NCBI GenBank assembly: GCA_965205525.1 | Contig: OZ242171.1 | Location: 1,869,098 to 1,933,097, forward strand | Direction of reading: 5' to 3' | Source of the DNA: Gammaproteobacteria bacterium | GTDB taxonomy: Bacteria; Pseudomonadota; Gammaproteobacteria; JABABF01 | Length of the DNA: 64,000 nt | Shown here: in pieces, positions 1-30,185 of the stretch | Layout of the letters: each line of letters starts with the position of its first letter | Numbering within the stretch: the stretch's first letter is position 1 | The notes under the pieces: model-generated | What the model saw: the letters and a program-made list of their open reading frames with translations, nothing else | Told to the model about the DNA's origin: nothing | The model's database searches: none | Program-made: the position numbers and the translations under genes

Positions 1-2283
1 CACAATCCCCAGCGGACCACGCCTCCAGTCAAAGGCCAGAGTAGCCCGGTTATGGGGCTGGAAATCCTCAATGATTGAGCGCGCCTCCCGGTTATAGAAT
101 CCCTCCGGGTCAATGCCGCCCGGGGCGCTCAGTTTTTCTATATTGGTGTTGGTATAGGAATACGCTAGCGAAGATTTCAAAATACCCTTGAACAATTCTC
201 CATCCATGGAGATCACCAAGTCAATCCCATTGGTTTCGGTTTCAATCGCATTGAAGAAGACTGAGGCTTGGTCCAGGCCGCGCTCGGCCAGCGAGTCCGC
301 TGCCATATCCAAGTTCAATCCGCGCAAGCTGGCAATGCCCAATCTTCCGCTGAGGGCAATGCGGTCATCAATATCAATGCGATAGACATCTGCCGTTATG
401 GAAACATTGTTCCATGGATTCAGGACAAAACCGAGGCTGTAGTTATTAGAGGTCTCAAAGTCCAAGTCATCAATGCCTAAGGCCGCAGAAAACGGATCCT
501 CTGTGCTGGCAATGAGTGTCTGCGCCAGTTCAACACCATCGGCCGCCGACTGGGTCACGATAGAGGTAAAGCCGAGCTGCGGCAGAGAAGGCGCCCGGAA
601 ACCAGTGGAAAATGCGCCGCGCAGAGCAAGGACTTCATCAATGATTTGTATTCGGGAGCTCAGCTTGCCGGTGAGCCGCTGGCCGACATCCTCGTAGTCC
701 TCGTAGCGCAGAGCTGCTCCCGCCAGCCAGCGCTCCGTAAAATTCTTTTCAAAGTCCACATACAGCCCGAAACTGGCGCGATCAAGGTCGGTCTCCACGG
801 CGGGGCTGTAACCGGGGAATGCCTGAAAGCCGCAGTCTGCCGCAACTGCGGAATTGACGATAGAGGAAAACGGTGTTGTGCCATTGCCTAGACCACAGGA
901 ATAGGAAGCTTTATCGCCGGCCTCAAGTTCATAGTTCTCGTCGCGGTATTCGGCGCCGAAGGCGATATGAAGCGGAAAGCTCCCCCATAGATCCAGCTCG
1001 CCGATGACATCATAGTTAAACGTCAGCTGCCCAAGCCTTACTGTCCCGGAATCGCCGGACGTAGGCCCCGCATTAGCAGCGATATCCGCATCTGCTGCCC
1101 CCGGATTATTGGCTAAATACTCTGCTGCGATGGATGCGTTTATAGTGTTTTCTGCACCGAAGGAAAATTCATTCACACCGTAATTGGCACTGAAATCCCA
1201 GCTCCAGCCGTCGGCGATCTCTCCTCGGAAACCGGTAACGATAAACCAGTCTTCGCTGTCCGTGTTCTGCAGCGGCAGGAAGCCATTCGGATGCACTTGC
1301 GGCACGGCACGGTTTGCCTGAAACGGGAAGCGATAAAAACCAGTGGACTGTCCTTCACGCTCGCTGTACTTGGCCATGAGATAAAACGCCAGAGTGTCGG
1401 TTATCGGAATCATGCCGTTGGCCATAAACAGCCAGTTTTCGTCATCGCCGTCACCAAAACGATAAATAGTTTGTCCGGCAGTGGGTCGCGCCTCAATGCC
1501 AGCATTGCGGTAAGTGGTCTGCCCGGTGCCCGATATATCCGGAGTGCCCGCCACAGTGCGGTTGGATCTCTCCGCCCGATTGGTGAAATCCCTTTCACGC
1601 GCTTCAAAGCTAAGGTTCAGGAAGCCGCTGTTTGGCAATGAAAAGCCCTGGTTCAGGGACACCGAGTATGTATCGCCATCGCCCTCGTAGGTAGAGCCCC
1701 AAAGGGCTCTTATGCTGGTGCCTTCGGAGTTTTCTTTCAGTATCAGGTTAACTACCCCCGCTATGGCATCGGAGCCGTACTGGGAGGATGCGCCATCGCG
1801 CAATACTTCTATGCGATCTATGGCCGCCACGGGAATAGTGTTGAAGTCAACACCGGTCGCCCCCCGGCCCAAGGATTCGGTAACATTCATCCACGCCTGG
1901 CCGACATGCCGCTTGCCGTTCACCAGCACCAGCACGTGGTCCGGTCCCAAGCCGCGCAGTGTTGCCGGGCGTGCCGAATCAGAGCCGTCAGATATGTTGT
2001 TGGTGCCGAAATTAAAAGATGGGGCAAGCTGCTGCAGCAGGCGTGCGGTTTCAATGTGGCCCGTATTGCCCAGCAGCTCAGAATTGAATACATCCACTGG
2101 CACCGCGGTCTCTTCCGCCGTGCGGCCAGCGACGCGAGTGCCTATGGTGACAACTTCTTCAATCCTCAGGTCCTGGGCCTGCACATCCGCCGAATGCGGC
2201 CAAAGGACTGCGAGCAGCAGGGCGATAGCGGCTGCCAGGGATTGTTTTTCAGAAGAATATCGGGATGGTATCAATTGGATCAT
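1..2283 (-). CDS. TonB-dependent outer-membrane receptor, 5' end in window and C-terminus beyond position 1 (partial)
   Basis: Reverse-strand translation from ATG at 2283 gives MIQLIPSRYSSEKQSLAAAIALLLAVLWPHSADVQAQDLRIEEVVTIGTRVAGRTAEETAVPVDVFNSELLGNTGH...LRGLGPDHVLVLVNGKRH, a signal peptide plus TonB box/plug domain. No reported minus-strand ORF shares this frame, consistent with an open frame running off the edge. Starts 22 bp after the stop of the upstream decarboxylase gene, so an operon is likely. Confidence 0.7.
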   Translation of the reverse strand, partial: MIQLIPSRYSSEKQSLAAAIALLLAVLWPHSADVQAQDLRIEEVVTIGTRVAGRTAEETAVPVDVFNSELLGNTGHIETARLLQQLAPSFNFGTNNISDGSDSARPATLRGLGPDHVLVLVNGKRHVGQAWMNVTESLGRGATGVDFNTIPVAAIDRIEVLRDGASSQYGSDAIAGVVNLILKENSEGTSIRALWGSTYEGDGDTYSVSLNQGFSLPNSGFLNLSFEARERDFTNRAERSNRTVAGTPDISGTGQTTYRNAGIEARPTAGQTIYRFGDGDDENWLFMANGMIPITDTLAFYLMAKYSEREGQSTGFYRFPFQANRAVPQVHPNGFLPLQNTDSEDWFIVTGFRGEIADGWSWDFSANYGVNEFSFGAENTINASIAAEYLANNPGAADADIAANAGPTSGDSGTVRLGQLTFNYDVIGELDLWGSFPLHIAFGAEYRDENYELEAGDKASYSCGLGNGTTPFSSIVNSAVAADCGFQAFPGYSPAVETDLDRASFGLYVDFEKNFTERWLAGAALRYEDYEDVGQRLTGKLSSRIQIIDEVLALRGAFSTGFRAPSLPQLGFTSIVTQSAADGVELAQTLIASTEDPFSAALGIDDLDFETSNNYSLGFVLNPWNNVSITADVYRIDIDDRIALSGRLGIASLRGLNLDMAADSLAERGLDQASVFFNAIETETNGIDLVISMDGELFKGILKSSLAYSYTNTNIEKLSAPGGIDPEGFYNREARSIIEDFQPHNRATLAFDWRRGPLGIV

Positions 2284-2305
2284 GCTGAAACTTCTGTGGA
2301 CTATA

Positions 2306-3667
2306 TCAGTGCAAAGAATATAGGATTTTTCTAATTTTGGGAAGCCAGTCTCCGTGCTCTGGCTTTAACAGGCAGGAGCGCAGACACTGCACCGTAGCCT
2401 CGTCACATTCCACCGAGGGCTGGTGGTGCGCCATCACGGACGCCGGCAGAGTGATCAGTGCCAAATGCAAATTCCGCTCTGCCGCCTTCTTGTAATACTG
2501 AGCAGAAGCGGCAGAAATTTCGGAGATCTTTTGGCGGTTTGGCACCCAGACCAGTATATCCAGCTCGGGCTCCATCAGCGTCAGGTAGCCCTCATCCTCC
2601 AAGAGGTGCCGGTACAGCCTTAATGCAGCGGCGCGTGATTTGGACAGCTCCTCTGCAAACTTGCCGCCTTTTTCCATAGGCAGCAGCTGCAGAGTCGCCC
2701 ACAGGGCGACAGCGGAGGCACCGGCCCGAGAGCATTCCAAGCTGATTTTTCCCATGTGCATATCGGGATTGGCAGAACTGAAAAAAGTATAGGGAGAGTC
2801 GTATTGAAAAATAGAGCTGACAGACGAATCGCGAAACAGTATGCAGCCACAGCCATAGGGCTGCAGACCGTGCTTATGCGGATCCACAACTATAGAATCG
2901 ACCTTGTGCAAAGCATGGAACGCCTGGCGGGCATTTTCTCCCAAATTGTCTGCCAGCAGAAAATAGCCGCCGTAGGCAGCATCCACATGTACACGAAAAT
3001 GGTATTTATCCCGCAGCTCAAGGATGCGATGCAGCGGGTCTATTGCACCCACGCCGGTAGTGCCCAAGGTTGCAACCACTGTGCCCACCTTGCCCGACTG
3101 CAGGATCTCCTCCAATGCGGCGATCTCCATCTGTGCATTCACATCGGCTGGAACCGACTGGAATGGCAGCTGCAGCACATCAGAGATGCGTGCATGAGTA
3201 AAGTGCGCCTGCGCGGAGGCAACTATTTTCTTGCCAGGATGCACCTTGCCGGCGGCCCACAGGGCTTCCATGTTGGCGATGGTGCCGGAAGTGCTCAAGT
3301 GGCCGATATATCCATCCTGCCAGCCGTACAGCCTGGCAATATCGGCAACCGCTTCTTTTTCCATCATGGAGCTGGCACGACCGCCCTCGTAGGCATGATT
3401 ATTGGGGTTAATCCACATGGCCATGGTATAGGCCAGGCGCGCTAAGGGGTGGGCCGGCTTATTCATATGCCCCGCATACAGAGGGTGCGGATATGGGTAG
3501 TTGTCGCGCATCCTCTCTGCGGCCTGCAGTAACACCCGCCTGATACCCGGCAGATCTGTGTCGGTTTCAAAGGCCGGCAGATCTTCGAAACCAGCTTCAA
3601 GGGTGTCCAAGGCTTCGCTCAGCAAAGAAAGACTTTTTTTCTCCAGCATATGTCTGTGCAAACTCAT
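2306..3667 (-). CDS. PLP-dependent group II amino-acid decarboxylase (DOPA/diaminobutyrate/lysine decarboxylase-like)
   Basis: 453-aa ORF with group II decarboxylase hallmarks: STSGTIANMEAL, DAAYGG, and the PLP-lysine region VVDPHKHGLQPYGCG. Confidence 0.8.
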   Translation of the reverse strand: MSLHRHMLEKKSLSLLSEALDTLEAGFEDLPAFETDTDLPGIRRVLLQAAERMRDNYPYPHPLYAGHMNKPAHPLARLAYTMAMWINPNNHAYEGGRASSMMEKEAVADIARLYGWQDGYIGHLSTSGTIANMEALWAAGKVHPGKKIVASAQAHFTHARISDVLQLPFQSVPADVNAQMEIAALEEILQSGKVGTVVATLGTTGVGAIDPLHRILELRDKYHFRVHVDAAYGGYFLLADNLGENARQAFHALHKVDSIVVDPHKHGLQPYGCGCILFRDSSVSSIFQYDSPYTFFSSANPDMHMGKISLECSRAGASAVALWATLQLLPMEKGGKFAEELSKSRAAALRLYRHLLEDEGYLTLMEPELDILVWVPNRQKISEISAASAQYYKKAAERNLHLALITLPASVMAHHQPSVECDEATVQCLRSCLLKPEHGDWLPKIRKILYSLH

Positions 3668-3901
3668 ACTCGCCGATATTATAAGTCCAGATCAGTTCAC
3701 CAAATTTTCTGCCGGAAAGCAGCAAATGTTCCGCTATTGATATGCTCGGCTTACAGAAATAATACTAAAACCGCACTTTGCGCCAAAAGCCAGTTCGGTG
3801 GGATACTCTGCTGCTCTTCTCGCAAAGGCGGGTATGCTAAATGGCAGATATCTGTGCACATGCCGCCAGCAGCATATACATTTAACTGAGGGGAGAATAA
3901 A

Positions 3902-4522
3902 GTGGCCGTTTTGAAAAGAGCAGTCTTTAATGACGGCAAGCTGCGCTGCGAGTGGGCAGCTAAGAGTGCCCTGCTCGCCTGCTATCACGACCGTGAATGG
4001 GGCGAGCCCCTGCATGACGACCAAGTGCATTTTGAATTCCTGCTGTTAGACGGTGCCCAGGCGGGGCTGAGCTGGCGGACCATCTTGGAAAAGCGTGAAA
4101 ACTATCGCACTGCTTTTGATGGCTTTGATCCGCGCAAGATCGCCCGTTACGATGCCAGAAAGGTGCGCTCACTGCTCAAAAACGCAGGCATTGTTCGCAA
4201 TCGTCTCAAGATCCGCTCCTCCATTGTCAATGCGCAGGTATTCCTGGCCATTCAGGAGGAGTTCGGCAGCTTTAATAAATATGTGTGGAAATTTGTCGGT
4301 GGCAAAACCATTCAGAACAGGTGGAAAACTGCCAGCAAGGTTCCGGCGTCCACCGCCAAAAGTGACGCACTGGCCGCCGACCTGAAAAAGCGCGGCATGT
4401 CCTTTGTCGGCACGACAATCATTTATGCCTATATGCAATCTGCCGGAATGGTGAACGACCATACCATCAACTGCTTCCGCCATGCCGAGCTGACCCGGAG
4501 CCGTCGCCGCTCGCGTTCCTGA
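3902..4522 (+). CDS. tag: DNA-3-methyladenine glycosylase I
   Basis: CEW...YHDREWGEP..D..FEFL.L.GAQAGLSW.TIL.KRE.YR.AF..FD..KIA...VRSLL.NAGIVRNRLKI...NAQ.FL.IQEEFGSF..YVW.FV is near-canonical Tag. GTG start at 3902 is preceded by GGGGAG. Confidence 0.85.
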   Translation: MAVLKRAVFNDGKLRCEWAAKSALLACYHDREWGEPLHDDQVHFEFLLLDGAQAGLSWRTILEKRENYRTAFDGFDPRKIARYDARKVRSLLKNAGIVRNRLKIRSSIVNAQVFLAIQEEFGSFNKYVWKFVGGKTIQNRWKTASKVPASTAKSDALAADLKKRGMSFVGTTIIYAYMQSAGMVNDHTINCFRHAELTRSRRRSRS

Positions 4523-4577
4523 TTACAATGAGGGGCTGCTGAAGCAAAATCACCGCCAGATACCGAGGGGGGTGCAA

Positions 4578-5999
4578 ATGTCCGATTATTCCATGCTCAT
4601 TGACGGCAAGGCTGTTGCCGCCGACAAAACCTTTGAGGTGAAAAATCCAGCTACCGGCGAGATCGTCGGACGCTGTCCCATCGCTTCCAGAGATCACCTG
4701 GATCAGGCGGTGGCCGCCGCACAGAGAGCTTTTGCCGCCTGGTCCCGCACATCGGACGAGGAGCGGGCCGAGACTTGCCGCAAGATGGCAGGCGCGGTTG
4801 CAGCGCATGCAGAGGAGCTGGCCCGGCTGCTGACCCAAGAGCAGGGCAAACCCCTCAAGGGGGTTGGCTCCGAGGCGGAGGTAAGCGGCTGCAGTACTTG
4901 GGCAATGCATACCGCTGACCTGACTCTGCCGGTTAAGGTTATTCAGGATGACGAACAGGCACGCGTTGAGCAGCACCGCAAACCGCTGGGAGTGGTCGGC
5001 TCCATCACCCCCTGGAATTGGCCTCTGATGATCGCCACCTGGCATGTGACACCGGCCATCCGCACCGGCAATACTGCTGTTATCAAGCCTTCCCCCTACA
5101 CGCCGCTCAGCACCATACGTCTGGTAGAGATCTTCAATGAGGTGCTGCCGCCGGGGGTGCTGAACTTGGTCACCGGGCAGGACTCGCTGGGACAGTGGAT
5201 GACGGAGCATCCGGGTATTCAGAAGATCATCTTCACCGGTTCAAGTCCAACCGGCAAAAAGGTGATGAGCAGCGCCGCTTCAAACCTGAAACGTCTCACC
5301 TTGGAGCTGGGGGGCAACGATGCCGGCATCGTGCTGAAGGACGCAGAACCAAAAGCTATTGCTGAGAAGATTATCCACAGTGCCTTTATCAACAACGGCC
5401 AGACCTGCGCGGCGCTGAAGCGCCTGTATGTGCACGAAGATATCTATGATGCCATGTGCGAGGTGCTGGTAAAAGCCGCCTCAGGAGTGGCGATGGGCAA
5501 CGGCCTGGATGAAAACAACAGGCAGGGGCCGATACAGAATGATATGCAGTACAAGAAAGTCCTGGCACTGCTGGAAGATGCGAAAAAATCTGGGGCAACT
5601 GTGCTATGCGGCGGCGAAGCACCGGAGGGACCGGGATACTTTCTGCCCTACACGCTGGTGTCCGACATCAGTGATGGCACCCGACTCGTAGATGAAGAAC
5701 AGTTCGGTCCAGTGCTGCCCATCATCAGATATAGCGATGAAGAAGATGTTATCAGGCGCGCCAATAACTCCGAGAACGGCCTCGGCGGCTCTGTCTGGTC
5801 TGCTGATATTGAACATGCTGCCGATCTGGCCTCGCGCCTGGAATGCGGCACCGCCTGGGTAAACGCCCATGGCAACATCATGCCGCATGTGCCTTTCGGC
5901 GGCGTGAAGTCATCCGGCTTCGGCGTTGAGTTTGCCGAAGAAGGACTGGAGGAATATACCTCTATTCAGATAGTGAATGTGAACAAGGGTGGCGGATAG
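4578..5999 (+). CDS. NAD(P)-dependent aldehyde dehydrogenase
   Basis: ALDH family motifs ITPWNWPL, ELGGNDAGIV, FINNGQTCAA, EEQFGPV and GGVKSSGFG. ATG at 4578 is preceded by GAGGGGGG; the ORF track starts 6 nt earlier at a GTG. Confidence 0.85.
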   Translation: MSDYSMLIDGKAVAADKTFEVKNPATGEIVGRCPIASRDHLDQAVAAAQRAFAAWSRTSDEERAETCRKMAGAVAAHAEELARLLTQEQGKPLKGVGSEAEVSGCSTWAMHTADLTLPVKVIQDDEQARVEQHRKPLGVVGSITPWNWPLMIATWHVTPAIRTGNTAVIKPSPYTPLSTIRLVEIFNEVLPPGVLNLVTGQDSLGQWMTEHPGIQKIIFTGSSPTGKKVMSSAASNLKRLTLELGGNDAGIVLKDAEPKAIAEKIIHSAFINNGQTCAALKRLYVHEDIYDAMCEVLVKAASGVAMGNGLDENNRQGPIQNDMQYKKVLALLEDAKKSGATVLCGGEAPEGPGYFLPYTLVSDISDGTRLVDEEQFGPVLPIIRYSDEEDVIRRANNSENGLGGSVWSADIEHAADLASRLECGTAWVNAHGNIMPHVPFGGVKSSGFGVEFAEEGLEEYTSIQIVNVNKGGG

Positions 6000-6038
6000 G
6001 CATTTTTCGCACTGTCCGCTGCATAAAAGTTTTGCGAA

Positions 6039-6971
6039 ATGGAGTACCTGCGCTACCTGTCATGCTGCGCATTTCTTATCTTGTCGGGATGTGAAATGCA
6101 TGGCCTCCCCTCTGCCGGCACGGTATCCCCCGCCTCAGGCAGTGACGCTGCCACAGAAAAATCACCCGCGCCATGCACTGCCGACGCACTTCCTGAACAT
6201 ATCGTCCGAGCCATGCAGGAAGGCAGGCGCATGGCAGCCTGTTTTATCCCATACCTTATCACTCTAGACCAGGGCACAGAAGTGCAGAAGCAGGTGGTGG
6301 CTTTGCTCGCCCGGGAGCGGGAGCGGGTGGGATACAAGCTGGCGGCTGCGGGCAGGCAAGCCCAGGATCGTCTTGCGATCAATGCCCCCCTAACCGGCGT
6401 GCTGTTCCGGGACATGCTGCTGCCCAGCGGTGCGAGCATTCCGGCGACAGCAGGCGCCGAATTGGTTTATGAAGCCGATCTGCTGGCAGAGGTCGGCGAT
6501 GAAGCCATCAATGAAGCGCACTCCCTGCAGCATGCCGCTCGGAGCCTGCGCAGGATCATTGCTTTCCTGGAAGTCGCGGACCTTATGATGCCAGCGGGTG
6601 TGCCGAATAACGGTCCACAGCTGCTTGCGGTCAATACCAGCGCCCGTTTCGGCGTGACTGGCGATAGCACAGCAGTCCGGAATGACACAGCGTTTGTCGC
6701 TGCACTCGCCGCAATGAAAGTGACACTGCACAACGGGACTGGCGAAGTATTGGCAGAAGCTCTCGGTGCTCAGCTGCTGGGAAATCCACTGCAGGCGGTA
6801 CTGCATCTGCGCGATGAAGTTCAGCGGCGAGGTGAACGGCTGCGCTCTGGAGACCTGCTGAGCCTTGGCACATTTACTGTGCCCCGCCGCGTTCGGGCAG
6901 GAGAGCAGGTAACCGCAACCTATTCTATTCCCGGCGAAGGCACCCTGCGGGTGCAGGCGGCTTTTGAATAA
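6039..6971 (+). CDS. putative lipoprotein with 2-keto-4-pentenoate hydratase (MhpD/HpcG)-like domain
   Basis: N-terminus MEYLRYLSCCAFLILSGC has a lipobox LSGC. C-terminal half aligns to MhpD-type hydratases: LEVADLM, LLGNPLQAVLHLRDEVQRRGERLRSGDLLSLGTFT, VRAGEQVTATYSIPGEGTLRVQAAF. Confidence 0.55.
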   Translation: MEYLRYLSCCAFLILSGCEMHGLPSAGTVSPASGSDAATEKSPAPCTADALPEHIVRAMQEGRRMAACFIPYLITLDQGTEVQKQVVALLARERERVGYKLAAAGRQAQDRLAINAPLTGVLFRDMLLPSGASIPATAGAELVYEADLLAEVGDEAINEAHSLQHAARSLRRIIAFLEVADLMMPAGVPNNGPQLLAVNTSARFGVTGDSTAVRNDTAFVAALAAMKVTLHNGTGEVLAEALGAQLLGNPLQAVLHLRDEVQRRGERLRSGDLLSLGTFTVPRRVRAGEQVTATYSIPGEGTLRVQAAFE

Positions 6972-7131
6972 AAATTGGCTCACTGCAGTGGGGCACGCAG
7001 TCTACTGCTGACTTCTCTTTATCCTGTCATGCCGCAGTCTTGAATAATGGCCTTTTTAATGAGTTTCGTCCGCATTGACTAAAACAGCAGCAGATGGCGG
7101 ACTAACCAATGATTGGAGGCAGGCGACAGAT

Positions 7132-7890
7132 CTACTCTCCAAAAGAATAGTTGAACTTTTCTATTTCCCACTTCGCAAATTCTGCAACCAAGTCACGCGA
7201 TTCGTTATCATAATACTCAGAATAATGATATTCCCCTTGTGTACGCTCTATATGCTCTATCAGAGGAAGCTTCTTCCCAATCTCTGGATAATTAATCTTT
7301 TCCCCGATATAGGCAAGATCCTCCTGCCAGTTTTCATGTTTTGCAACAAAATCTACAATCATATCTCCATCTTCATCAAGCAGGTATTCTCTTGCAGGCC
7401 TAATGGAAAATTTCTCCTCCTTTTCCTCCTCCAAAAGTATATACGCCAGCCAATGCCCAAACATCGGCTTTAAGACAATAGGAGGCGGCAAGATTATACA
7501 ATCAAATATGTTTTTATGATGAAGGAAGAAAAACGATAAATACCAGCTCCATGGGTTTCTTACCATACTAAAAGTGAAGATTTTCTGCCACAGCTGATCT
7601 CCCAGACACATGTGCATCTGTTGCGCTGTGCTATGGTCTGCTATAAATGGCAGAATGCGCCGCCTCAAAAGACCAGTTCTATGAATAAAATCATTCCTCC
7701 CGTAAGGCCAGCCAAATTGCCCCCATAACTCCTGCTTAATAGAGGGGGAACCTGTGCAAGGAATGTCTACAAACCAGCAGTCTGCTTTGGAAATTCTACT
7801 GCGAATGGAATACCAGACAATTTGCTTAATAGTAGACAGCGGCAAATACTTCGCCCAACGCGCATAGCGCGGACTATACCATAAGGACAT
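7132..7890 (-). CDS. sulfotransferase family 2-like protein (copy A, motif-degenerate)
   Basis: 252 aa in a low-GC segment. 5'-PSB-like motif is DIPCTGSPS (expected IPKTGGTS) and the 3'-PB region is FTFSMVRNPWSWYLS (expected RNPxDR). C-terminal ~110 aa are ~85% identical to copy B. Confidence 0.55.
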   Translation of the reverse strand: MSLWYSPRYARWAKYLPLSTIKQIVWYSIRSRISKADCWFVDIPCTGSPSIKQELWGQFGWPYGRNDFIHRTGLLRRRILPFIADHSTAQQMHMCLGDQLWQKIFTFSMVRNPWSWYLSFFFLHHKNIFDCIILPPPIVLKPMFGHWLAYILLEEEKEEKFSIRPAREYLLDEDGDMIVDFVAKHENWQEDLAYIGEKINYPEIGKKLPLIEHIERTQGEYHYSEYYDNESRDLVAEFAKWEIEKFNYSFGE

Positions 7891-8002
7891 AACACACCTC
7901 TCTTAGAAAAAGAATTTCATGCCGGCACACAGTAGTCCCCTCCCACACCTGCAAGCTTAGCCGGTGGTGGACTGGTAAATGATTGGAATGCAGGCGACAA
8001 GT

Positions 8003-8767
8003 CTACTCTCCAAAAGAATAGTTGAACTTTTCTATTTCCCACCTCGCGATCTCTGCAACCAAGTCACGCGACTCGCTATCATAATATTCGGAATAATGGT
8101 GTTTCTTAGGTGTGTATTGTTCCAGATGCAGCGATTCCCCAAGTTCCGGATAATTAATCTTTTCACTAATGTAAGCAAGATCCTCCTGCCGATTTTCATA
8201 TTTTGCAACAAAATCTACAATCATATCTCCATCTTCATCAAGCAAGAATTCCGCTATAGGTACTATAGGTACTGCACATTTTTCTGTAAGCCTATACATT
8301 AGCTGATACTTAAAAATTGATCTTATCTCATCAAGAAGGTAAGGGACCGGAGGAAAAGATTTACATTTGTAAAAGAAGTCTGATACATATCTGTCCCATG
8401 GATTTCTTACTATACTGAAAGTGAAGGTTTTCTGCCACAGCTGATGTCCCAGACACATACGCATCTGCCGCGCTGTGACATGGCGGTTTACAAATGGAAG
8501 AAGGAAGTCCAACGAAGAATTATATCTATGCCTAATCGGATTCGTCCTTTTATAATTGCTAGTCAAGTAAGGCCAGCCAAATTGCTGACTTAATTCAAAC
8601 CTAGTAGATGTAGAGGATGTGCGAGGTATATCTATAAACCAGAAACCTGCCTTAGAGATTCTATTGCCAGCGATATGCCAGACTATCTGGTCCAGAGAAA
8701 ACCGCTCCAGCAACCTTTCTAAATCTAAAAAAGGATGGACTTTGCCTTGTCTGTAGTGTAAAAGCAT
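8003..8767 (-). CDS. sulfotransferase family 2-like protein (copy B)
   Basis: 254 aa with DIPRTSSTS and FTFSIVRNPWDRYVSDFF motifs. Paralogous to the 7132..7890 gene; low GC. Confidence 0.6.
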   Translation of the reverse strand: MLLHYRQGKVHPFLDLERLLERFSLDQIVWHIAGNRISKAGFWFIDIPRTSSTSTRFELSQQFGWPYLTSNYKRTNPIRHRYNSSLDFLLPFVNRHVTARQMRMCLGHQLWQKTFTFSIVRNPWDRYVSDFFYKCKSFPPVPYLLDEIRSIFKYQLMYRLTEKCAVPIVPIAEFLLDEDGDMIVDFVAKYENRQEDLAYISEKINYPELGESLHLEQYTPKKHHYSEYYDSESRDLVAEIARWEIEKFNYSFGE

Positions 8768-9072
8768 ACAATCGCACCCTAATGTCTACTCTAATGCTAT
8801 TCTCAGGGGTGGAGAAGGCATATTGTATATGCAACCAGCCGGACATTGCCCTCAGAGCTGCCTTCTACCTAGCATGGCATGGCATCGGGCTGCGTTCCAG
8901 GTCTCTGCGGACCTTCTAATCTGTCGCCAGATACCGATCATGCCAACGGTAAACGCCCCCTCCTTGACAAGTACAATCTTCATTGTATTATAGTTGCCGT
9001 ATGATTAACCGATGTCTGTTTAGCTCTTCACAATAAAGAGTCTTCTCAGGCTTACCCTTTGGGGAACCCAGC

Positions 9073-9104
9073 GCCTTGGCCGGCTTGCCGGTCAAGGCGT
9101 TTTT
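9073..9104 (+). terminator. rho-independent terminator-like hairpin with no obvious upstream plus-strand gene
   Basis: gccttggccgg cttg ccggtcaaggc forms an 11-bp stem with one mismatch, followed by GTTTTT. Confidence 0.3.
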
Positions 9105-9139
9105 ACATCTCCAGAATCAAATGCTTAGCTGAAGGGATA

Positions 9140-9635
9140 CTACTTAATGCCCGGCCATCCTGCTCCAAAGAACTGCGGCACAACCCTCGTGGCCGGGCCG
9201 TGATGAACTTCGTCAAAGACATCGCTGCCAGCTGAAGGCTCTAGGTTGAGCTCTACCGTGCGGGCGCCCGCTGTCTTCGCTATTCGCACGAAATCAGAGG
9301 CGGGGCTTACATTGCCCGAGGTGCCGATGGAGACGAAGATCTCGCATTGGGCCAAGGCTTCATAGACGCATTCCAGCTGCAGGGGCATTTCGCCAAACCA
9401 GACCACATAGGGTCGCAGACTAGTCATGGAGCGGCAATCGGGGCAGCGGTCTTCGGGCAAGATTTCCTCGGCGGATGGGGAAATGCCGCCACAGGCCGTC
9501 GCTGGCACGGAAGGTCGCCACCCCTGACTCAGCAGATACGCCGGCACCGGTAAGAACTGCAATCCTTGATGGGGAGAAACTCATAGGGGAGAAAAGCCGA
9601 GCAATAGAAGACGGCGAGAGTCTATCGTATAACAA
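9140..9635 (-). pseudogene. cobB: NAD-dependent deacylase CobB/Sir2 remnant (frameshift plus internal deletion)
   Basis: N-terminal Sir2 segment IAVLTGAGVSAESGVATFRASDGLW lies in one frame (ORF 9420..9635). The C-terminal segment CPDC...PYVVWFGEMP...IGTSGNVSPA...TVELNLEPS...GPA..VVP lies in another (ORF 9140..9562). Only ~13 codons separate them, where ~100 aa including the QNID.LH catalytic core are expected. Confidence 0.65.
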
Positions 9636-9784
9636 TGTGCGTCAGCTGCAGGAGTATTGTCAGAAGTGCCAGTGGCCAGACCGGCCGGATCACAGCGGGC
9701 AAAGCCGGCTTACCCAGAACATTGACCCGCACTCGCCGCTCCCCTACACTTCCTTGTCCGAACAGCACCACCAAGAGAACAGAT

Positions 9785-11674
9785 ATGTGCGCACAGCAGG
9801 TACAGCAACAGGGAGACTGGGACATGCTGATACGCGGCGCCCTGGTATTTGACGGACGCGGCGGTGCGCCGGCAAAAGAGGATGTGGCGCTGCGGGACGG
9901 ATGCATTGCCGCCCGGGGCGCCAACCTTGCGCCGGAAGGGGCGCGGGAGACAGTGGATGCCGCCGGCTGCTGGCTGATGCCGGGACTCCTGGACATTCAC
10001 ACTCACCTGGATCTGGAGGTGGAGGTTAATCCGGGTCTCGGCGAGGCAGTGCGCCACGGCAGCACCACGGCGGTGGTAGGCAACTGCTCTATCGGCACCG
10101 CTTTCGGCCCCCAGCGGAAGAATGGCGAGGACCCCATCCTGGACTGCTTCACCCGGGTGGAGAATATGCCCAAGCGGGTTCTCAGGAAGTGTGTGGACAA
10201 AATGGACTGGGACAACACCGGCGACTACCTGGAGCACTTCAGCCGTATTCCTTTGGGCCCCAACATCGCCCCCCTGCTGCCCCACTCCATGCTGCGGGCA
10301 GAGGTGATGGGTGTGGATGGCGCGGTCCGGCGAGAGCCCACCGCAGAGGAGACCGAGCGTATGAAGGGCATTCTGCGGGAGGCGCTGGAGCAGGGCTACA
10401 TCGGCATGTCCTCCGACGGCATCGTCTTTCACTACCTGGCCAACGACCCGCACAAGGACAAGCGGCTGCCCACTCAGTTCGCCGGCCAGGGGGAGATGAA
10501 AAGCCTGGTGGACCTGCTGCGCAAGTACAGCCGCGTATGGCAGGTGACCCCAGATGGTGCAGACATGCGCACCACCTTCCGCCGCTTTCTGTGGACCAGC
10601 GGGCGGCTGCACGGCAAGCCGCTGCGGATCTCGGCGCTCACGGCAATGGATTTCAAGCCCAAGCCCGGCGCCTGGCGGGGGCTGCTTATGATGTCCTGGT
10701 TCCTCAACTCCTTCCTGGTGAAGGGACACTTTCACTTGCAGGCACTGGCCACCAACTTCCGCATATGGAGCAACGGGGTCACGACACCGGTATTGGAGGA
10801 GCTGGAATCTACCCGCGCCCTCATCGCCTGTGAAGCAGAGGATCGGGAGGGGCGTATGCGCCTGCTGAACGACCCCGCTTGGCAGGAGCAATTTCGCCGC
10901 GACTGGCAGGGGGTATCCGCTGCCGCTGCCGGTGCCGCTCGCAATCGCCATGCTACTTTTGAGCTGGATCCTGCGGACATCATCATTGATGACGGCTGCT
11001 CTATCCGCTGCTGGCGTGACCAGAAGCTGGTGTCCATCGTGGAGCGTTTTGCTGCCTACCGGGAGGGGGATCGGGAGGCAGCGAGATCGCCGGAAGAGGA
11101 GGCTCTGTTCAGAAGCGCGCCGGCAGACTGCGAAGGGGTAGCGGATTTCTTCATGCACTGCCTGAGGCAGATGGATCTGGATTTTCGCTGGTGGATGGAT
11201 GTGGGCAACCTGCGGCCCGATGTGCTGAAGAAGCTGGTGTTCAGCAAGTACACCCTGCCGGGTTTCAACGACAGCGGCGCCCATATCACCAATATGGCCT
11301 TTTATGACGGCAATCTGCTGACCCTGAAGATGGCCCAGGAAGATGGTCTCGGGCGGGTAGCAGAGGCTGTGCGCCGGCTGACGCGAGAGCCGGCAGATTT
11401 CTTCGGGCTGGATGTCGGGGGGATGGAGATGGGAGATCGGGCAGACCTGGTGCTGCTAAACCCTGATCAGCTGCGGGAATATGACACCAACACCAACCGG
11501 CAGCTTATCTATAACCCGCTGTTTGAGCACGATGTGATGGTGAACCGCTCCGACGGTGTGGTAGAGCAGGTGTACATTCGCGGCACGCGGGTATGGGAGG
11601 ATGGGTGCCGCTACACAGAGGCCCTGGGACGGGATACTCTGGGGCGAGTGCTGACTACTGCGCGGAGCGTATAG
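9785..11674 (+). CDS. N-acyl-D-amino-acid deacylase family amidohydrolase (D-aminoacylase-like)
   Basis: Motifs LIRGALVFDG, GLLDIHTHLD, GFNDSGAH and ADLVLLNP match amidohydrolase-3/D-aminoacylase. An alternative start is ATG 9824 (MLIRGA...), preceded by GGGAG. The 28-50 aa upstream extension in the ORF track is probably untranslated. Confidence 0.75.
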   Translation: MCAQQVQQQGDWDMLIRGALVFDGRGGAPAKEDVALRDGCIAARGANLAPEGARETVDAAGCWLMPGLLDIHTHLDLEVEVNPGLGEAVRHGSTTAVVGNCSIGTAFGPQRKNGEDPILDCFTRVENMPKRVLRKCVDKMDWDNTGDYLEHFSRIPLGPNIAPLLPHSMLRAEVMGVDGAVRREPTAEETERMKGILREALEQGYIGMSSDGIVFHYLANDPHKDKRLPTQFAGQGEMKSLVDLLRKYSRVWQVTPDGADMRTTFRRFLWTSGRLHGKPLRISALTAMDFKPKPGAWRGLLMMSWFLNSFLVKGHFHLQALATNFRIWSNGVTTPVLEELESTRALIACEAEDREGRMRLLNDPAWQEQFRRDWQGVSAAAAGAARNRHATFELDPADIIIDDGCSIRCWRDQKLVSIVERFAAYREGDREAARSPEEEALFRSAPADCEGVADFFMHCLRQMDLDFRWWMDVGNLRPDVLKKLVFSKYTLPGFNDSGAHITNMAFYDGNLLTLKMAQEDGLGRVAEAVRRLTREPADFFGLDVGGMEMGDRADLVLLNPDQLREYDTNTNRQLIYNPLFEHDVMVNRSDGVVEQVYIRGTRVWEDGCRYTEALGRDTLGRVLTTARSV

Positions 11675-11911
11675 CCTCTATGCTTAGAGGGGGGACACAC
11701 CGCTAGCCGTGTGATTTGGGTTCATACATCTATAACCCCACTTAAACTGCTACTCACTTTGCGATTGGAATAACGAAATTTGTGGGATATTGCCGGTGCG
11801 GTAATAGCATCAACGATTCCAAAGTCCAGGAATACCGCACTTGCGACGATTTTTGCACCCATGGTGCTGGCAATTGATCCAACCGCCTGTCGACCGTCGT
11901 TTGTTTTGCAT

Positions 11912-12805
11912 TCACACCCCCTTCTCATTCATCCCTATTCTCTCCAAGATGCCCTCCAATTCGCCGGTGCTGCTGTAGCGGACGACGATGCGGCCCCGGC
12001 CCCGGGTTGTATGCTGCACCTGCACCGGCGCACCTAAATGCTCTGCAAGCTCGCGCTCTAAGCGCTGCACATCCGGGTCTTCTCTGCCGCTGCTTACAGA
12101 CTTGCGCTTCTCGCGCTTCCCCGATGCCGTTATACGGCGCACCCGCTCCTCGGTCTGCCGCACGGACCAGCCCTCCGCCGCGACCTGCCGAGCCATCTTT
12201 GTCCGGAACTCCGGAAGCAAGCCCAAAAGCGCTCGGGCGTGCCCCATCTCCAGTTTGCCGCTGATTAGGAGCTCCCGTGCTTCCTCCGGCAGGCTCAGCA
12301 GCCGCAGCAGGTTGGTCACCGCACTGCGGGATATGCCAGTCATCTCTGCCGCCTCCTTCTGCTGCAAGCCAAATTCCTGGATGAGACGCTGCAGACCCTC
12401 TGCCTGCTCAATGGCGTTCAGGTCCTGCCGTTGAAGGTTCTCGGTCAAGGCCAGCACAGAGGTGCTGCGGTCGTCCAATTCCCGCACCACGGCGGGAATG
12501 GTCCGCTGCTCTGCCAGCCGGGAAGCGCGCCAGCGGCGCTCTCCCGCCACCAGCTCGTAACCGCCGTTGGTCCGGGGGCGCACTACCACCGGCTGGATTA
12601 CACCGCCAGCACGGATGGAGTTGGCCAGCTCCGCCAGGCTTTCCTCGTCAAAGTGCCGACGCGGCTGGCGCGGATTTTGGTGCACCTGGTCCAGAGGCAG
12701 ATTGTGAAAACCCGCCGCCCCTGCAGAAACTGCCGCCGTCGTGCCGCCCTGTCCGAGCAGAGCATCCAGCCCTCGGCCTAATCCGCGTTTTTTCCTCGCT
12801 GTCAT
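11912..12805 (-). CDS. parB: chromosome partitioning protein ParB
   Basis: From the internal Met: MTARKKRGLGRGLDALL...LPLDQV..NP.QPR..F....L.ELA.SI...GVIQPVVVR......YELVAGERRWRAS.LA. Canonical ParB N-terminus plus HTH. The ORF-track 5' extension is non-coding. Confidence 0.85.
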   Translation of the reverse strand: MTARKKRGLGRGLDALLGQGGTTAAVSAGAAGFHNLPLDQVHQNPRQPRRHFDEESLAELANSIRAGGVIQPVVVRPRTNGGYELVAGERRWRASRLAEQRTIPAVVRELDDRSTSVLALTENLQRQDLNAIEQAEGLQRLIQEFGLQQKEAAEMTGISRSAVTNLLRLLSLPEEARELLISGKLEMGHARALLGLLPEFRTKMARQVAAEGWSVRQTEERVRRITASGKREKRKSVSSGREDPDVQRLERELAEHLGAPVQVQHTTRGRGRIVVRYSSTGELEGILERIGMNEKGV

Positions 12806-12896
12806 TGTGCTTCTTCTTCTGCCGCTGTCTCTTTGTGCTTCGGAACTGCCTTCACCGCTCTGCTTTGCGGGCAGTCGGCATCCCCTGCGACTTTCA

Positions 12897-13670
12897 TCAC
12901 CCTGCGGACCCGGGGCTGGAGTTCGCCCGCCCCAGCACCTCCCCCGCCAGCTCTTGATAAGCCTGTGCGCCCCGACACAGCTGGTCGTAGGCCAAGGCGG
13001 GCATGCCATGGCTCGGAGCCTCGGCAAGACGCACATTGCGAGGAATAATCGTATGGTACAGCCTGTCTCCAAAATGCACCCGCAGCTGCTCTGAAACCTC
13101 CTGGGCCAGACTGTTGCGGCTGTCGTACATGGTGCGCAAAACGCCGGCTATGTGCAGGGGAGGATGCCGCTCCTGCAGTCGCTCCACGGTCTGCACCAGG
13201 GCGGACAGGCCCTCCAAGGCATAGTACTCGCACTGCACCGGCACTATCAGACCGTCTGCGGCCATCATGGCGTTCACTGTCAAGGGATTCAGGGCGGGGG
13301 GGGAGTCGATAAGAATGTAATCGTAGTCGTTTCCCAGCGGCGCCAGCCTTTCCCGCAGACAGTACTCCTTCCCGGGAAGCTGCGCCTCCGCGGCCGTGAG
13401 ATCGCCGTCTGCCGGCAGCACATCGTAGCCCCCCGATTCACTTCTCTGCATCAGCGCTCCGGCTGGCATATCCTCCAGCAACAGGTGATACATGCTGTGC
13501 TCAAGAGAATTTTTTTCAATGCCGCTGCCTATGGTTGCATTCCCCTGAGGGTCCAGATCCACCAGCAGCACCCGGCGACGGGCAGCAGCCAGGCAGGCAG
13601 CAAGATTGATCGCAGTGGTGGTTTTCCCCACCCCTCCCTTCTGATTGGTAAGTGCAAAAATTCTTGCCAT
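12897..13670 (-). CDS. parA: chromosome partitioning ATPase ParA/Soj
   Basis: MARIFALTNQKGGVGKTTTAINLAA...VLLVDLDPQGNAT is the Walker A' of the ParA family. Start placed at the Met before IFAL. Confidence 0.9.
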   Translation of the reverse strand: MARIFALTNQKGGVGKTTTAINLAACLAAARRRVLLVDLDPQGNATIGSGIEKNSLEHSMYHLLLEDMPAGALMQRSESGGYDVLPADGDLTAAEAQLPGKEYCLRERLAPLGNDYDYILIDSPPALNPLTVNAMMAADGLIVPVQCEYYALEGLSALVQTVERLQERHPPLHIAGVLRTMYDSRNSLAQEVSEQLRVHFGDRLYHTIIPRNVRLAEAPSHGMPALAYDQLCRGAQAYQELAGEVLGRANSSPGSAG

Positions 13671-13678
13671 CTCTTCTC

Positions 13679-14311
13679 TCAGCCAGCCCAGCGGCATACC
13701 ACAAGGTGGCGCTCAGCATCCACCCCCGGCACCTGCAGCGGCAGGCAGTACTCTACGACAATTTCCGGCGGCAGCTCCCCCAGCTCTCTCTCGGGGTTGC
13801 GACCCCTGGGAAACAGCAGGCAAGTTCCGGCCCGACAAAGATGTGAGAACATCTGCAGCAGCAGGGCTGGCGGCTTTACCGCTCGGGCTGTAATAATATC
13901 CGGCAGCTGCGCCGGGTGATATCGCTCCACCTCTGCCTCCGCCACCTCCGCTCCCTCTATCTCCAGTTCCGCCTTTGCCTGGCGCAGAAATCGGGCCTGA
14001 TTTGCCCCCCGGTCCAGCAGCACAACCCGCCGCTCCGGGCAGGCGATGGCAATCGGCAGACCAGGCAGACCGGCACCGCTTCCCACATCCAGCAGGATTT
14101 CTCCCGCAGGCAAGTGGTGCACCAAGCTTAGGCTGTCCAGCAGCAGTTTTCGCACCATCTCTTCAGGTTCCCGGACCCCAGTAAGGGAGAAACGCCTGTT
14201 CCAGCGCTCCAAAAGCTGCACATAGGCCAGCAATCTTTCCAAGGCGGTCTCCGGCAGGTGAAGGTCCATTTCCTGCAAGCCTGCTTTCAGGATCTCAGCG
14301 GGGTTGTCCAC
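13679..14311 (-). CDS. rsmG: 16S rRNA (guanine527-N7)-methyltransferase RsmG (GidB)
   Basis: LLDVGSGAGLPGLPIAI SAM-binding motif and GidB-like length, located directly downstream of mnmG. Confidence 0.85.
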   Translation of the reverse strand: MDNPAEILKAGLQEMDLHLPETALERLLAYVQLLERWNRRFSLTGVREPEEMVRKLLLDSLSLVHHLPAGEILLDVGSGAGLPGLPIAIACPERRVVLLDRGANQARFLRQAKAELEIEGAEVAEAEVERYHPAQLPDIITARAVKPPALLLQMFSHLCRAGTCLLFPRGRNPERELGELPPEIVVEYCLPLQVPGVDAERHLVVCRWAG

Positions 14312-14458
14312 GGGGTTCCGACTCTTGCCCGGTTCTCAGCAGGAAAGCCGAGCAGCAGTCCCGGCGGCTCTTCCCAGTACCCGCTGCTGCTTGCCCAGCA
14401 GAGCACGCGTGGGTTGTAGGGAGCTTTCCTGCCGGCAATGGATGTTCCGAGGCCCAGG

Positions 14459-16351
14459 TCAGGCCTGGCGGCGGTCAGCGGCGAAGCCGCCGCGCTTTTT
14501 GAGATGAACAAGCAGCAGCGAGAGGGCGACAGGAGTGACCCCGGGAATACGGCCTGCCTGGCCCAAGGTGACCGGGCGGCCAGCATCCAGTTTCTGGCGG
14601 ATTTCGGTGGAAAGCCCGGTTACCTGGCCGTAATCCATGCTGTCGGGAAGGATCTCCTCCTCGTGCCTTCGCAGCCGCTCAATCTCTGCCTGCTGTCGGG
14701 CGGCATAGCCGGCATATTTGATCTCTGCCTCTATCGCGCGGGCTGCCTGGGCTTCCATTACGGCATCCGTGGATTCTGCCTGAAGGTGGCGATAGCTCAG
14801 TTCGGGGCGCCGCAGAAGGCTGGCCAGCTTCTGCTCACGGCAAAGAGGTTCTTTCAAGTACCGCTCAAGACCGGATGCCAGGGCTGTGCCGGGACGAATA
14901 GAGGTGTGCTCCAGCCGCTGAATCTCGCGCTCTATAAGCTCTTTCTTCTCGCAGAATTTCCGCCAGCGAGCCTCGCCGACCAGGCCGAGCTCCCGCCCTT
15001 TTTCTGTCAGCCGCAGATCCGCATTGTCCTCCCGCAGCAAAAGGCGGTACTCGGCCCGGCTGGTGAACATGCGATAGGGCTCCGGTGCACCCTGGGTGAT
15101 AAGGTCATCCGTCAGCACGCCCAAGTAGGCCTGGTCCCGGTACGGGTGCCAGGCAGGACTGCCCTGCACCAGCCGCGCCGCGTTGAGCCCGGCCAAAATT
15201 CCCTGGGCAGCCGCCTCCTCGTAGCCAGTGGTGCCATTGATCTGGCCAGCAAAGAAAAGCCCTCGCACAAAGCGGGTTTCCAAAGAAGGCCGGAGATCCC
15301 GGGGGTCAAAGTAGTCGTACTCTATGGCGTAGCCGGGCTGTGTGATGCGGGCGTTCTCAAAGCCAGCGATAGAGCGGACCATTGCCTCCTGCACGGCCAG
15401 AGGCAGGCTGGTGGAAATCCCGTTGGGATAAATCTCAGAGCTTGTCAGCCCCTCCGGCTCAACAAATATCTGGTGGGAATCCCGCTCGGCAAAGCGCACG
15501 ACCTTGTCCTCAATGGAGGGGCAGTATCTTGGGCCACGCCCCTCAATGGCTCCCGAATGCATGGGCGACTGGTCCAGAGCGCCGCGAATAATCTCGTGGG
15601 TCTTCTGGCTGGTGCGGGTGATAAAACAGCTCACCTGATGCGGATGCTCTTCCGGCAGACCCAGATAGGACATCACTGGGACGGGGATGTCTCCGGGCTG
15701 CTCCTCCATTTTGCCAAAGTCCACTGTGTTCCCATCCAGCCTAGGGGGAGTGCCTGTTTTCAAGCGACCGACCCGAAAGGGCATCTCTCTCAGCCGGGCG
15801 GCCAGCGCCAAGGAAGAAGCCTCCCCCGCCCGACCGCCGCTCTTGCTCCGCAGCCCAATATGAATGCGACCGCCCAGGAAAGTGCCTGCGGTCAGCACTA
15901 CCGCAGAGGCCGAAAAGTGCTCTCCCGCGTCGGTAATCACCCCCTGAACACTTTCCCCGGATACCCGCAAATCCTCTACCGAGCCGGCCAAGAGAGAAAG
16001 ATTGGGCTGAGAGTGCACCAAAGCCTGCACCGAGGAGCGATACAGGGAGCGATCTGTCTGGGCCCGGGTAGCCTGCACCGCGGCACCCCGGCTGGCATTC
16101 AGCACACGAAAATGAATTCCAGCACGGTCGGCAGCACGGGCCATGATGCCATCCAACGCATCCACCTCGCACACCAAATGGCTCTTACCGATACCCCCTA
16201 CCGCCGGATTGCAGGACATCTGTCCAATTGTCTCCAAGCGCTGGGTCAGCAGAAGTGTCTTACAGCCTACTCGCGCGGCGGCAGAAGCCGCTTCAACGCC
16301 AGCATGGCCGCCGCCGATGACAATCACATCAAAAGTGCTAAGAGACTTCAC
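14459..16351 (-). CDS. mnmG: tRNA uridine 5-carboxymethylaminomethyl modification enzyme MnmG (GidA)
   Basis: [19 protein letters not shown]-binding N-terminus, full GidA-like length and a conserved C-terminus. A GTG start at 16351 ([15 protein letters not shown]) gives 630 aa like E. coli MnmG. The ORF-track ATG at 16465 would add an atypical 38-aa Cys-rich extension. Confidence 0.88.
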
Positions 16352-16819
16352 AAGCTGAGAATAGAAAATACAGAGAGAGCAAATTATAACGGTGCGCCGC
16401 CTGCACACCAAGACAGCCTGCAGACTGTCTCCGCTAGAACAGCAGATGCCGAAGTGTAGGTGCATCCTTTCCTCGGCATGATCAAAGATTTAAGATTCAG
16501 CAGTCTCTCCCTACTTCTATTAATTAATCATGTTCCAATTGGATATATAAGAATTAATAGCAGTAGTAGTAGGGCCTTCCCTTGGGCCTTGCATGAAGGT
16601 GGGTAACTTTTTTCTTCGTAGGAAAAGCAGCAGCTTGCCGATGCCATCTCAAGTGGATCTGTATGGGAAGTATATGTTGCTGAGCCTGGGAATGAAGGAT
16701 GTTTGACCTAGGGATAAGTGTGGATGAGATTTCTCTCTATCTATTGGAGAAGAAAATCATCCACATCTATGCACACTTTTCCTTTGGGTTCTCCTCATGT
16801 GCGGGAGTTGGCCTGGGAG
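16352..16819. promoter_or_regulatory. mnmE-mnmG intergenic region with AT-rich block and DnaA-box-like 9-mers (candidate oriC/DUE or mnmG promoter region)
   Basis: AT-rich stretch tacttctattaattaatcatgttccaattggatatataagaattaatag. Two inverted DnaA-box-like 9-mers, TGTGGATGA and TCATCCACA (each one mismatch to TTATCCACA), lie ~40 bp apart. GATC sites are also present. Confidence 0.35.
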
Positions 16820-29684: not shown

Positions 29685-30185
29685 GTTGACCGCGCTCCGG
29701 ATCTCACACCGACCGATGGTCGTGACCGCCAGGAAGCATCCGCTGCCATTCAAAGATGCGGGGCAGCGGCTGAACATAGCCGGTCACATCGGCAATGGCC
29801 AGACGCTTCGGGTCCAGCAGCTTTGCTTTGAGAAGAATATTCTGGCCTGACAGCTCTCCCAGGCGATAGACATAGGTGCCGCTGGCGGTCGGTGTCATAT
29901 TCGGCTATGTGTATATGCAGCTTTTCGGCATCTCAGGTGTGCCCCAGATTGCGGCCGCTCAAGGGGTTCAGGCGCGTCTACTGGGGCGGGGGCCAATGTG
30001 CTGGGAAGTATCGCAGTGAATTGAATAAAGCGAAAAGACTGCCCCATGCTGGTCTCCTGACTGTCGTCGCCGCTATAAGCGTGGCGCGGGGCCCAGCCGT
30101 CAGCAGAGGCAATATAATGCATTTAAGGGTGTGTCTGCAGTATCTGTCGGCATCTGCCCGTGCTCTTTGTCACCGGCGAGTGGGG

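Follow-up and report, generated by a model that had tools for sequence, protein, structure and literature searches.

A two-gene sulfotransferase islet in a gammaproteobacterial genome as the probable minimal form of a copy-number-variable tandem array

A 64,000-nucleotide stretch of a gammaproteobacterial contig (OZ242171.1; hereafter the window) contains a low-GC islet with two adjacent sulfotransferase-family genes on its minus strand, copies A and B (Table 1). We consider it probable that this islet is the two-copy version of a tandem array whose copy number varies between related genomes, with B a likely active enzyme and A an impaired paralog that has been retained. The array's setting would be a conserved hotspot near oriC, flanked on one side by a hydratase gene and on the other by the cobB/amidohydrolase genes, in the genome (roughly 2 Mb) of an uncultured gammaproteobacterium; the islet would be the local, minimal form of this lineage-specific array.

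Two minus-strand open reading frames (ORFs) of about 250 residues lie exactly where a preliminary description of this DNA, made from its sequence, had placed them, and its view of them as tandem paralogs holds: the proteins are 56% identical (136/245 residues, E=5e-84), far above chance, and the DNA copies repeat in register with a spacing of 847-871 bp. The motifs quoted there (IPRTSSTS and RNPWDR in B, IPCTGSPS and RNPWSW in A) are also correct. Sulfotransferase identity was borne out by profile searches, in which the score against Pfam PF03567 (Sulfotransfer_2) was 30.2 bits for B, which clears the cut-off of 22, and 20.7 bits (E=5e-4) for A, which falls slightly short of it. Despite this lower score, A falls in the same homolog set as B. 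When B was used as a database query it returned 131 homologs, mostly with PF03567, and those with a source name were labelled 'sulfotransferase family 2 domain-containing protein'. At E<=1e-30 a full profile search gave 1,639 representatives of 50%-identity clusters, and at E<=1e-10 it gave about 20,000. No NCBIfam model matched A or B, and a single-sequence search of the PDB gave nothing useful.

The AlphaFold models of both proteins are confident (pLDDT 86.5 for B and 87.9 for A) and have the sulfotransferase alpha/beta P-loop fold; Foldseek searches with the models returned the same families, with a weak match (E=7e-4). The family profile aligns iVRNPWDRvlS with IVRNPKDTAVS of SULT7A1, which is the canonical 3'-phosphate-binding (3'-PB) motif. 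By these comparisons A and B belong to a large, uncharacterised bacterial Sulfotransfer_2 subfamily with Arg in the P-loop, and both are predicted to be stand-alone, cytoplasmic sulfotransferases of the type that uses 3'-phosphoadenosine 5'-phosphosulfate (PAPS). The nearest sulfotransferase among the species of the genome collection is 43% identical, and GyrB of the source organism is 57% identical to that of named Gammaproteobacteria and 76% identical to that of one contig group, a deep gammaproteobacterial placement.

Motif states were scored on an alignment of 113 homologs (positions here and below are in B numbering). The loop binding 5'-phosphosulfate (5'-PSB loop) in the subfamily is FWFIDIPRTSSTS, and B matches this consensus exactly. 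The basic residue of the loop, at position 49, is Arg in 108 of the 113 homologs and Lys in one. IPRTSSTS of B had been described as degenerate; however, DIPRTSSTS is the subfamily consensus, and because Arg is the consensus residue, Arg for Lys in B is not a defect. In the AlphaFold model of B this region forms a strand (42-45), the loop DIPRTSSTS and a helix (52-63). Within the 3'-phosphate motif, the Arg and the Ser eight residues on (R121 and S129) are invariant (113/113) and present in both A and B. His96, found in 112/113 homologs and again in both copies, is, as read from the alignment, the putative general base. B would bind PAPS through the strand-loop-helix DIPRTSSTS and R121/S129, with His96 acting as general base, and judged by its sequence it is most likely an active glycan sulfotransferase.

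Copy A did not turn out to be intact on proper alignment. As the preliminary description had proposed, it departs from conserved cofactor-site residues, and it does so at five near-invariant positions (each conserved in 106-111 of the 113 homologs): R49C, G41D (Gly in 106/113), D125S (Asp in 106/113), R126W (Arg in 111/113) and R193W (Arg in 107/113). Position 49 became Cys by a single CGC -> TGC change, also present in the ortholog of A in the sister strain L001, and A therefore has no basic residue at the 5'-PSB position. The description was right that a residue of the P-loop had been replaced by Cys, but the residue lost is Arg and not an essential Lys. Its reading of RNPWSW as a degenerate 3'-PB motif is similarly half correct: the family-specific D125 and R126 are changed, but the classical 3'-phosphate ligands R121 and S129 are intact, and N122 and P123 between them are kept as well. 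With the P-loop Arg and four other near-invariant residues lost, A is probably incapable of sulfate transfer by the standard mechanism. It keeps the fold, the His and the 3'-phosphate site, and it may persist as a non-catalytic or altered-function partner, or be decaying.

Loss of the P-loop Arg occurs inside this clade only, with Cys in A and in L65_1/P0002, Ala in P0003, and Ser in L63_2/L64_1/P0006; on the aligned sequences, Arg49 has been lost several times. In L65_1, R49C and G41D arose independently of A, via the same CGC -> TGC and GGC -> GAC changes, and losses of G41 and R49 tend to go together in the family as a whole (Fisher p=1.4e-4; few independent events). These recurrent paired changes, together with the retained His96, R121 and S129, are what would be expected if A were still a working transferase, in which another basic residue or the Cys replaces the Arg, or in which the donor or acceptor chemistry differs. 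We regard this as rather unlikely: D125, R126 and R193 are lost too, position 49 looks unconstrained among the paralogs (C, A or S), and the 5'-PSB basic residue is catalytic in the sulfotransferases that have been studied. In the tyrosylprotein sulfotransferases (TPSTs) this residue is an Arg (R78 in TPST2, R79 in TPST1), and Ala mutants have greatly reduced activity, losing most of it (PMC5562738, PMC10951654).

Copies without the Arg are not necessarily short-lived. The third paralog encoded on the same contig, P0003 (IPATSSSS), is 58% identical to A, and the two share S125 and the loss of Arg49; that both are nevertheless intact at this divergence suggests that a copy without the Arg can survive over long periods. 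SULT4A1 is one of the sulfotransferase-fold proteins without demonstrated activity and is highly conserved in vertebrates. It may offer a parallel to A, although A evolves fast and adjoins an apparently intact paralog.

The duplication that separates A from B is old. Their 3' thirds and flanks had been called near-identical, which is too strong: DNA identity is 89% across the last 114 nt (13 nt past the stop codon included), drops going 5' to 85% over the next 129 nt and 79% over a further 130 nt, and is 76% over another 29 nt of 3' flank. A and B are old paralogs with a synonymous divergence (dS) of 0.63. In the 3' third dS is 0.55, comparable to that of the 5' part (0.52), and since it is as high as there, the similarity of the 3' thirds reflects constraint at the protein level. 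The same values rule out gene conversion as its cause. A neighbour-joining tree contained no supported A+B pair (9/100 bootstraps, with A+P0003 in 40/100).

The same site in related genomes contains a tandem array of varying size. L001 (ENA ERZ25069326), which is 97.6-99% identical in DNA and collinear over window positions 3341-17076, has both A and B. In L063, L064 and L065 the flanking genes are at dS 0.6-1.0 from those of the window, and the site is anchored by shared genes for an adenine glycosylase, an aldehyde dehydrogenase and a hydratase, plus an amidohydrolase in L063. The number of sulfotransferase copies at this site is 2 in L001, 8 in L063, 4 in L064 and 3 in L065. All eight L063 copies are full-length ORFs (241-289 aa), and 20 of the 21 copies compared over five genomes have no stop in the aligned region. 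The last three units in L063 (13400-17000) have a period of 1,194 bp, and because each carries ~280 bp of hydratase-gene fragments, they indicate that the L063 array grew by local tandem duplication, the duplicated unit taking in part of the hydratase gene. A search of the window islet for a fragment of this kind found none. The 31-nt motif that directly follows the hydratase gene in the window recurs at unit boundaries in the arrays of relatives, with matches of 84-87% at L063 9269-9299, 13404-13434 and 16981-17011 and at L064 8384-8411. Thus, the sulfotransferase family is an old resident of this lineage at this site. We found no description of such sulfotransferase arrays in the literature.

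Outside the collinear region the two sister strains diverge (window 1-3341, L001 14549-15700). The window has a complete gene for a pyridoxal phosphate-dependent decarboxylase (2306-3667). L001 has only the 3' part of this gene and, after it, a third sulfotransferase paralog with a frameshift; L064 and L065 have intact orthologs of that paralog at the same position.

The low GC content claimed for the islet was confirmed. Between roughly 7000 and 9000, GC drops from ~0.59-0.61 to 0.40-0.45; copies A and B have GC contents of 0.42 and 0.40, and of 0.45 and 0.39 at third codon positions (GC3), compared with 0.55-0.64 and 0.61-0.76 (GC3) for the neighbouring genes. Backbone homology to L063 stops at 7042, to the left of the islet, and starts again at 8956, to its right. 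Low-GC islets are also formed by homologs in several other high-GC symbiont genomes (for example, 0.36 against 0.59 in L011, and 0.38 against 0.51 in L068). This composition had been taken to indicate horizontal origin. A foreign origin in the more distant past is plausible, but a recent insertion is not, as the site is occupied in relatives whose flanks are at dS 0.6-1.0. Indeed, a comparison for presence or absence, which the preliminary description had suggested, found copies at the same site in all four relatives. Deviant composition is the only feature of a recent genomic island that the islet has: there is no integrase or insertion sequence among the neighbouring genes and no flanking direct repeat, and a tRNA scan of the window found no tRNA gene (an Rfam scan of the window was also empty). 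A weak 23-nt inverted repeat that brackets the islet (78% complementary) was treated as chance.

The gene next to the islet is, as previously claimed, a cobB remnant (Sir2-family deacylase). It is split into two ORFs in different frames, and the NCBIfam and Pfam SIR2 models match only its C-terminal part. L001 has an intact 247-aa cobB beside the same islet, and alignment to that gene shows that the 284 bp missing from the window copy (L001 8137-8420) removed the catalytic core. The suggestion that insertion of the islet had disrupted cobB does not survive this comparison: the deletion is internal to the gene and over 700 bp away from B, and the L001 gene is intact, so the islet is not its cause. 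Low GC and GC3 notwithstanding, we therefore consider it very improbable that the islet is a recently acquired foreign element that broke cobB on insertion. A further ~190 bp upstream of cobB are also missing from the window relative to L001. Elsewhere, L068, another gammaproteobacterial genome (2.57 Mb) from the same metagenome as L001, contains a single stand-alone homolog (8001-8807) that is 39% identical to B. The homolog is low in GC and surrounded by housekeeping genes, a pattern that would fit exchange of the family between bacteria living in one habitat.

Selection acts unevenly along the proteins. Ratios of nonsynonymous to synonymous differences (pN/pS) were pooled over nine phylogenetically independent ortholog pairs and were 0.89 for the N-terminal part (residues 24-130; p=0.51 against neutrality), 1.25 for the middle part (131-172; p=0.58) and 0.25 for the C-terminal third (173-254; p=3e-11). 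The C-terminal third differs from both the middle (Fisher p=1.5e-5) and the N-terminal part (p=6.5e-5), and it is under purifying selection across the ortholog pairs. The constrained half is where sulfotransferases bind the nucleotide. Local pN/pS peaks above 1.5 were found at residues 76-106 and 132-153, and these variable stretches flank His96 and come after the 3'-PB helix; we take the corresponding loops to form the acceptor pocket in cytosolic SULTs.

The most extreme case is the pair L63_6 and L63_7, which in the 42-codon middle segment differ by 28.5 nonsynonymous and 0.5 synonymous changes (p=0.0012) in an ungapped alignment, with 14, 12 and 6 changes at codon positions 1, 2 and 3. An old unconverted segment was ruled out as the source of this pattern, as dS there would be high. 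Mutagenesis of hypervariable loops by a diversity-generating retroelement was also rejected, as the changes are not adenine-specific; no reverse transcriptase was present among the ORFs scanned. For A and B themselves, a rough least-squares split of distances put omega at ~0.75 for the branch leading to A and ~0.3 for that leading to B, which suggests that A is under relaxed constraint.

The right edge of the islet is marked by a stretch (8956-9104) that is 80% identical to the L063 block directly upstream of cas9. The L063 stretch is complementary to the CRISPR repeat over 36 alignment columns, and its counterpart in the window includes the best local match to the L063 CRISPR repeat in the whole window. 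The window has no cas9, cas1, cas2 or CRISPR array, and this stretch resembles a tracrRNA gene that remained when the cas operon was lost. Promoter-like sites in 6900-9300 were no commoner than in shuffled sequence, and the one strong site fits the relic; a scan of the same interval found no terminator-like sites. In the relatives, the neighbours of the array are a type II system with a CRISPR array of ~20 repeats (L063), a type I-E system with a CRISPR array (L064) and a Cas1 gene (L065).

This recurrent proximity raises the possibility that the array belongs to a phage-interaction hotspot, in which diversifying sulfotransferases alter a surface receptor glycan and so evade phage or host immunity, alongside CRISPR-Cas. 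The excess of amino-acid changes in the putative acceptor loops, and domain fusions in the subfamily that point to glycan acceptors, would fit such a role. However, the link to defence is positional only, neither A nor B matched a PADLOC model at E<=0.01, and a role in host recognition or nutrition would also be compatible with variable copy number and rapid evolution. We hold this explanation to be quite improbable.

The acceptor was assessed from the wider subfamily. Some members carry extra domains (GT2, nucleotide-diphospho-sugar transferase, FkbM methyltransferase, and the NKWYS capsule-synthesis domain), which points to a carbohydrate acceptor; for B this would probably be a sugar of a surface glycan. 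More distant homologs occur in mixed contexts, either stand-alone among housekeeping genes, beside a mannosyltransferase-like gene, or beside a second sulfotransferase and type IX secretion system cargo genes. Rhizobial NodH, NoeE and LpsS are bacterial cytoplasmic PAPS enzymes that sulfate symbiosis-related glycans; their genes lie in nod or lipopolysaccharide clusters, not in tandem arrays. The PF03567 carbohydrate sulfotransferases, such as heparan sulfate 2-O-sulfotransferase (PDB 3F5F/4NDZ), are assigned to the same Pfam family as A and B. The latter differ in being soluble, stand-alone bacterial proteins of ~250 aa, from a subfamily with Arg rather than Lys in the 5'-PSB loop, and they have only 10-14% sequence identity to any solved structure. 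TPST1 and TPST2 (PDB 5WRI, 3AP3) have the 5'-PSB Arg in common with the subfamily, but they use a Glu base and act on protein tyrosines, whereas here a conserved His occupies the base position and the subfamily fusions point to glycans; no closer sequence relationship to the TPSTs was detected.

Several observations weigh against an active B and a retained A. When the window is compared with L001, dS is 0.009-0.036 and dN/dS 0.12-0.29 for the flanking genes, whereas A and B reach dS ~0.06 and dN/dS 0.77, indistinguishable from neutrality. The L001 ortholog of B, read from a contig with just 5x coverage, carries a 6-bp deletion and an in-frame stop codon. For the window's own A and B, the pN/pS of 0.40 in the C-terminal third is only marginal (p=0.069), and A has not evolved faster than B overall (26 against 20 unique amino-acid changes in a Tajima-type test, p=0.46). 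B and the array copies lack, as aligned, the lysine of the family YGK motif (104/113); this region is a loop of low model confidence and variable length, and we gave it no weight. The AlphaFold models, being alignment-driven, cannot reveal a loss of activity. Finally, a check of the neighbours for PAPS synthesis and a glycan product, as proposed in the preliminary description, found no PAPS-synthesis or glycan-assembly genes in the 64-kb window.

Taken further, some of these points would make both genes decaying relics of an old acquisition in a shrinking genome, without present function and with A further along. The near-neutral dN/dS between strains applies to both genes, their dN is 10-40 times that of the flanking genes, and the L001 stop codon fits as well, as do the cobB deletion and the cas-less tracrRNA relic, which would represent ongoing gene loss at the locus. 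Even so, we judge decay unlikely, if a serious contender. It does not sit well with the strong constraint on the C-terminal third over the nine ortholog pairs, with the near-absence of stops among the copies of the five genomes and the full length of all eight in L063, with the lack of any indel in the 756 bp of A between window and L001, or with the intactness of both A and P0003 after their shared changes. A two-copy array with a likely active B and an impaired but retained A is the reading that we prefer.

Table 1. Features of the islet and its surroundings in the window.
Feature	Position	Strand	Description
Aldehyde dehydrogenase gene	4572-5999		Upstream of hydratase; with hydratase, conserved hotspot anchor
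Hydratase gene, HpaH/MhpD-like family	6039..6971	plus	Left flank; synteny in L001, L063, L064 and L065
31-nt motif	7012..7042		Directly after hydratase gene; recurs at array unit boundaries in relatives
Islet with both sulfotransferase genes	7043..8955		Low GC; bounds from GC and from where L063 backbone homology stops and resumes
Copy A	7132..7890	minus	252-aa ORF; sulfotransferase-fold paralog without P-loop Arg (IPCTGSPS)
A-B spacer	7891..8002		B-proximal part 7959-8002 is a repeat of the A 3' flank 7089-7131 (repeat families D3, D4)
Copy B	8003..8767	minus	254-aa ORF; full subfamily motif set: FWFIDIPRTSSTS (5'-PSB), His96, RNPWDRYVS (3'-PB)
tracrRNA-like relic	8956..9104	plus	Right edge of islet
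Promoter-like site in relic	8964-8991		Only strong one in region
CRISPR-repeat-like stretch in relic	8999-9033		35 nt, 26/35 match to L063 type II CRISPR repeat
Terminator hairpin, then TTTTT	about 9072-9104		Conserved, three compensatory pairs
cobB (Sir2-family deacylase) pseudogene	9140..9635	minus	284-bp internal out-of-frame deletion, junction 9488/9489

Several further features lie elsewhere in the window. A 734-aa protein with a C-terminal FGE-sulfatase (SUMF1-like) domain is encoded at 29892-32096 (plus); apart from this gene and the sulfotransferases, the window has none related to sulfur esters. A Fic-domain gene lies at 32349-33524. The 2,062-aa product of an ORF at 42903-49091 (plus) has WD40 and lactonase-type beta-propeller repeats; eukaryote-like repeat proteins of this sort are frequent in host-associated bacteria. 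A second AT-rich islet consists of a low-GC gene at 59845-60675 (plus; GC 0.40, 276 aa), which matches the PADLOC model for UzuA, the Uzume anti-phage defence protein (E=5e-45), with no Pfam match, and an adjoining low-GC gene at 61720-62832 (minus; GC 0.43, 370 aa) with DUF6765. A dip in GC to 0.47 at 16250-17000, in the spacer between gidA-like and mnmE-like genes and near a dnaA-dnaN-recF-gyrB cluster (assigned by position and length only), may be origin-related.

Taken alone, the pair in the window is unremarkable: both genes are old sulfotransferase paralogs from a large, uncharacterised subfamily, and the cofactor site of one is damaged. What the relatives add is a variation from 2 to 8 copies at one conserved site, recurrent loss of the catalytic Arg, and the combination of a constrained cofactor-binding half with loops in which nearly all changes alter the amino acid. 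A more ambitious interpretation, which we offer tentatively and think unlikely to hold, is that the hotspot is a module for diversifying the sulfation of surface glycans in a host-associated lineage. Copies would be gained and lost by unequal recombination, the acceptor loops would be under positive selection, and Arg-less copies would be retained as non-catalytic glycan- or PAPS-binding partners, all within a phage- or host-interaction island beside CRISPR-Cas. For annotation, the analysis corrects a common trap: members of this subfamily should not be called defective because they have Arg where the textbook motif has Lys. If the acceptor is a surface glycan, the array would offer a small, natural setting in which to study how bacteria alter their sulfation patterns, and it would also show how a pseudoenzyme originates within an array of enzymes.

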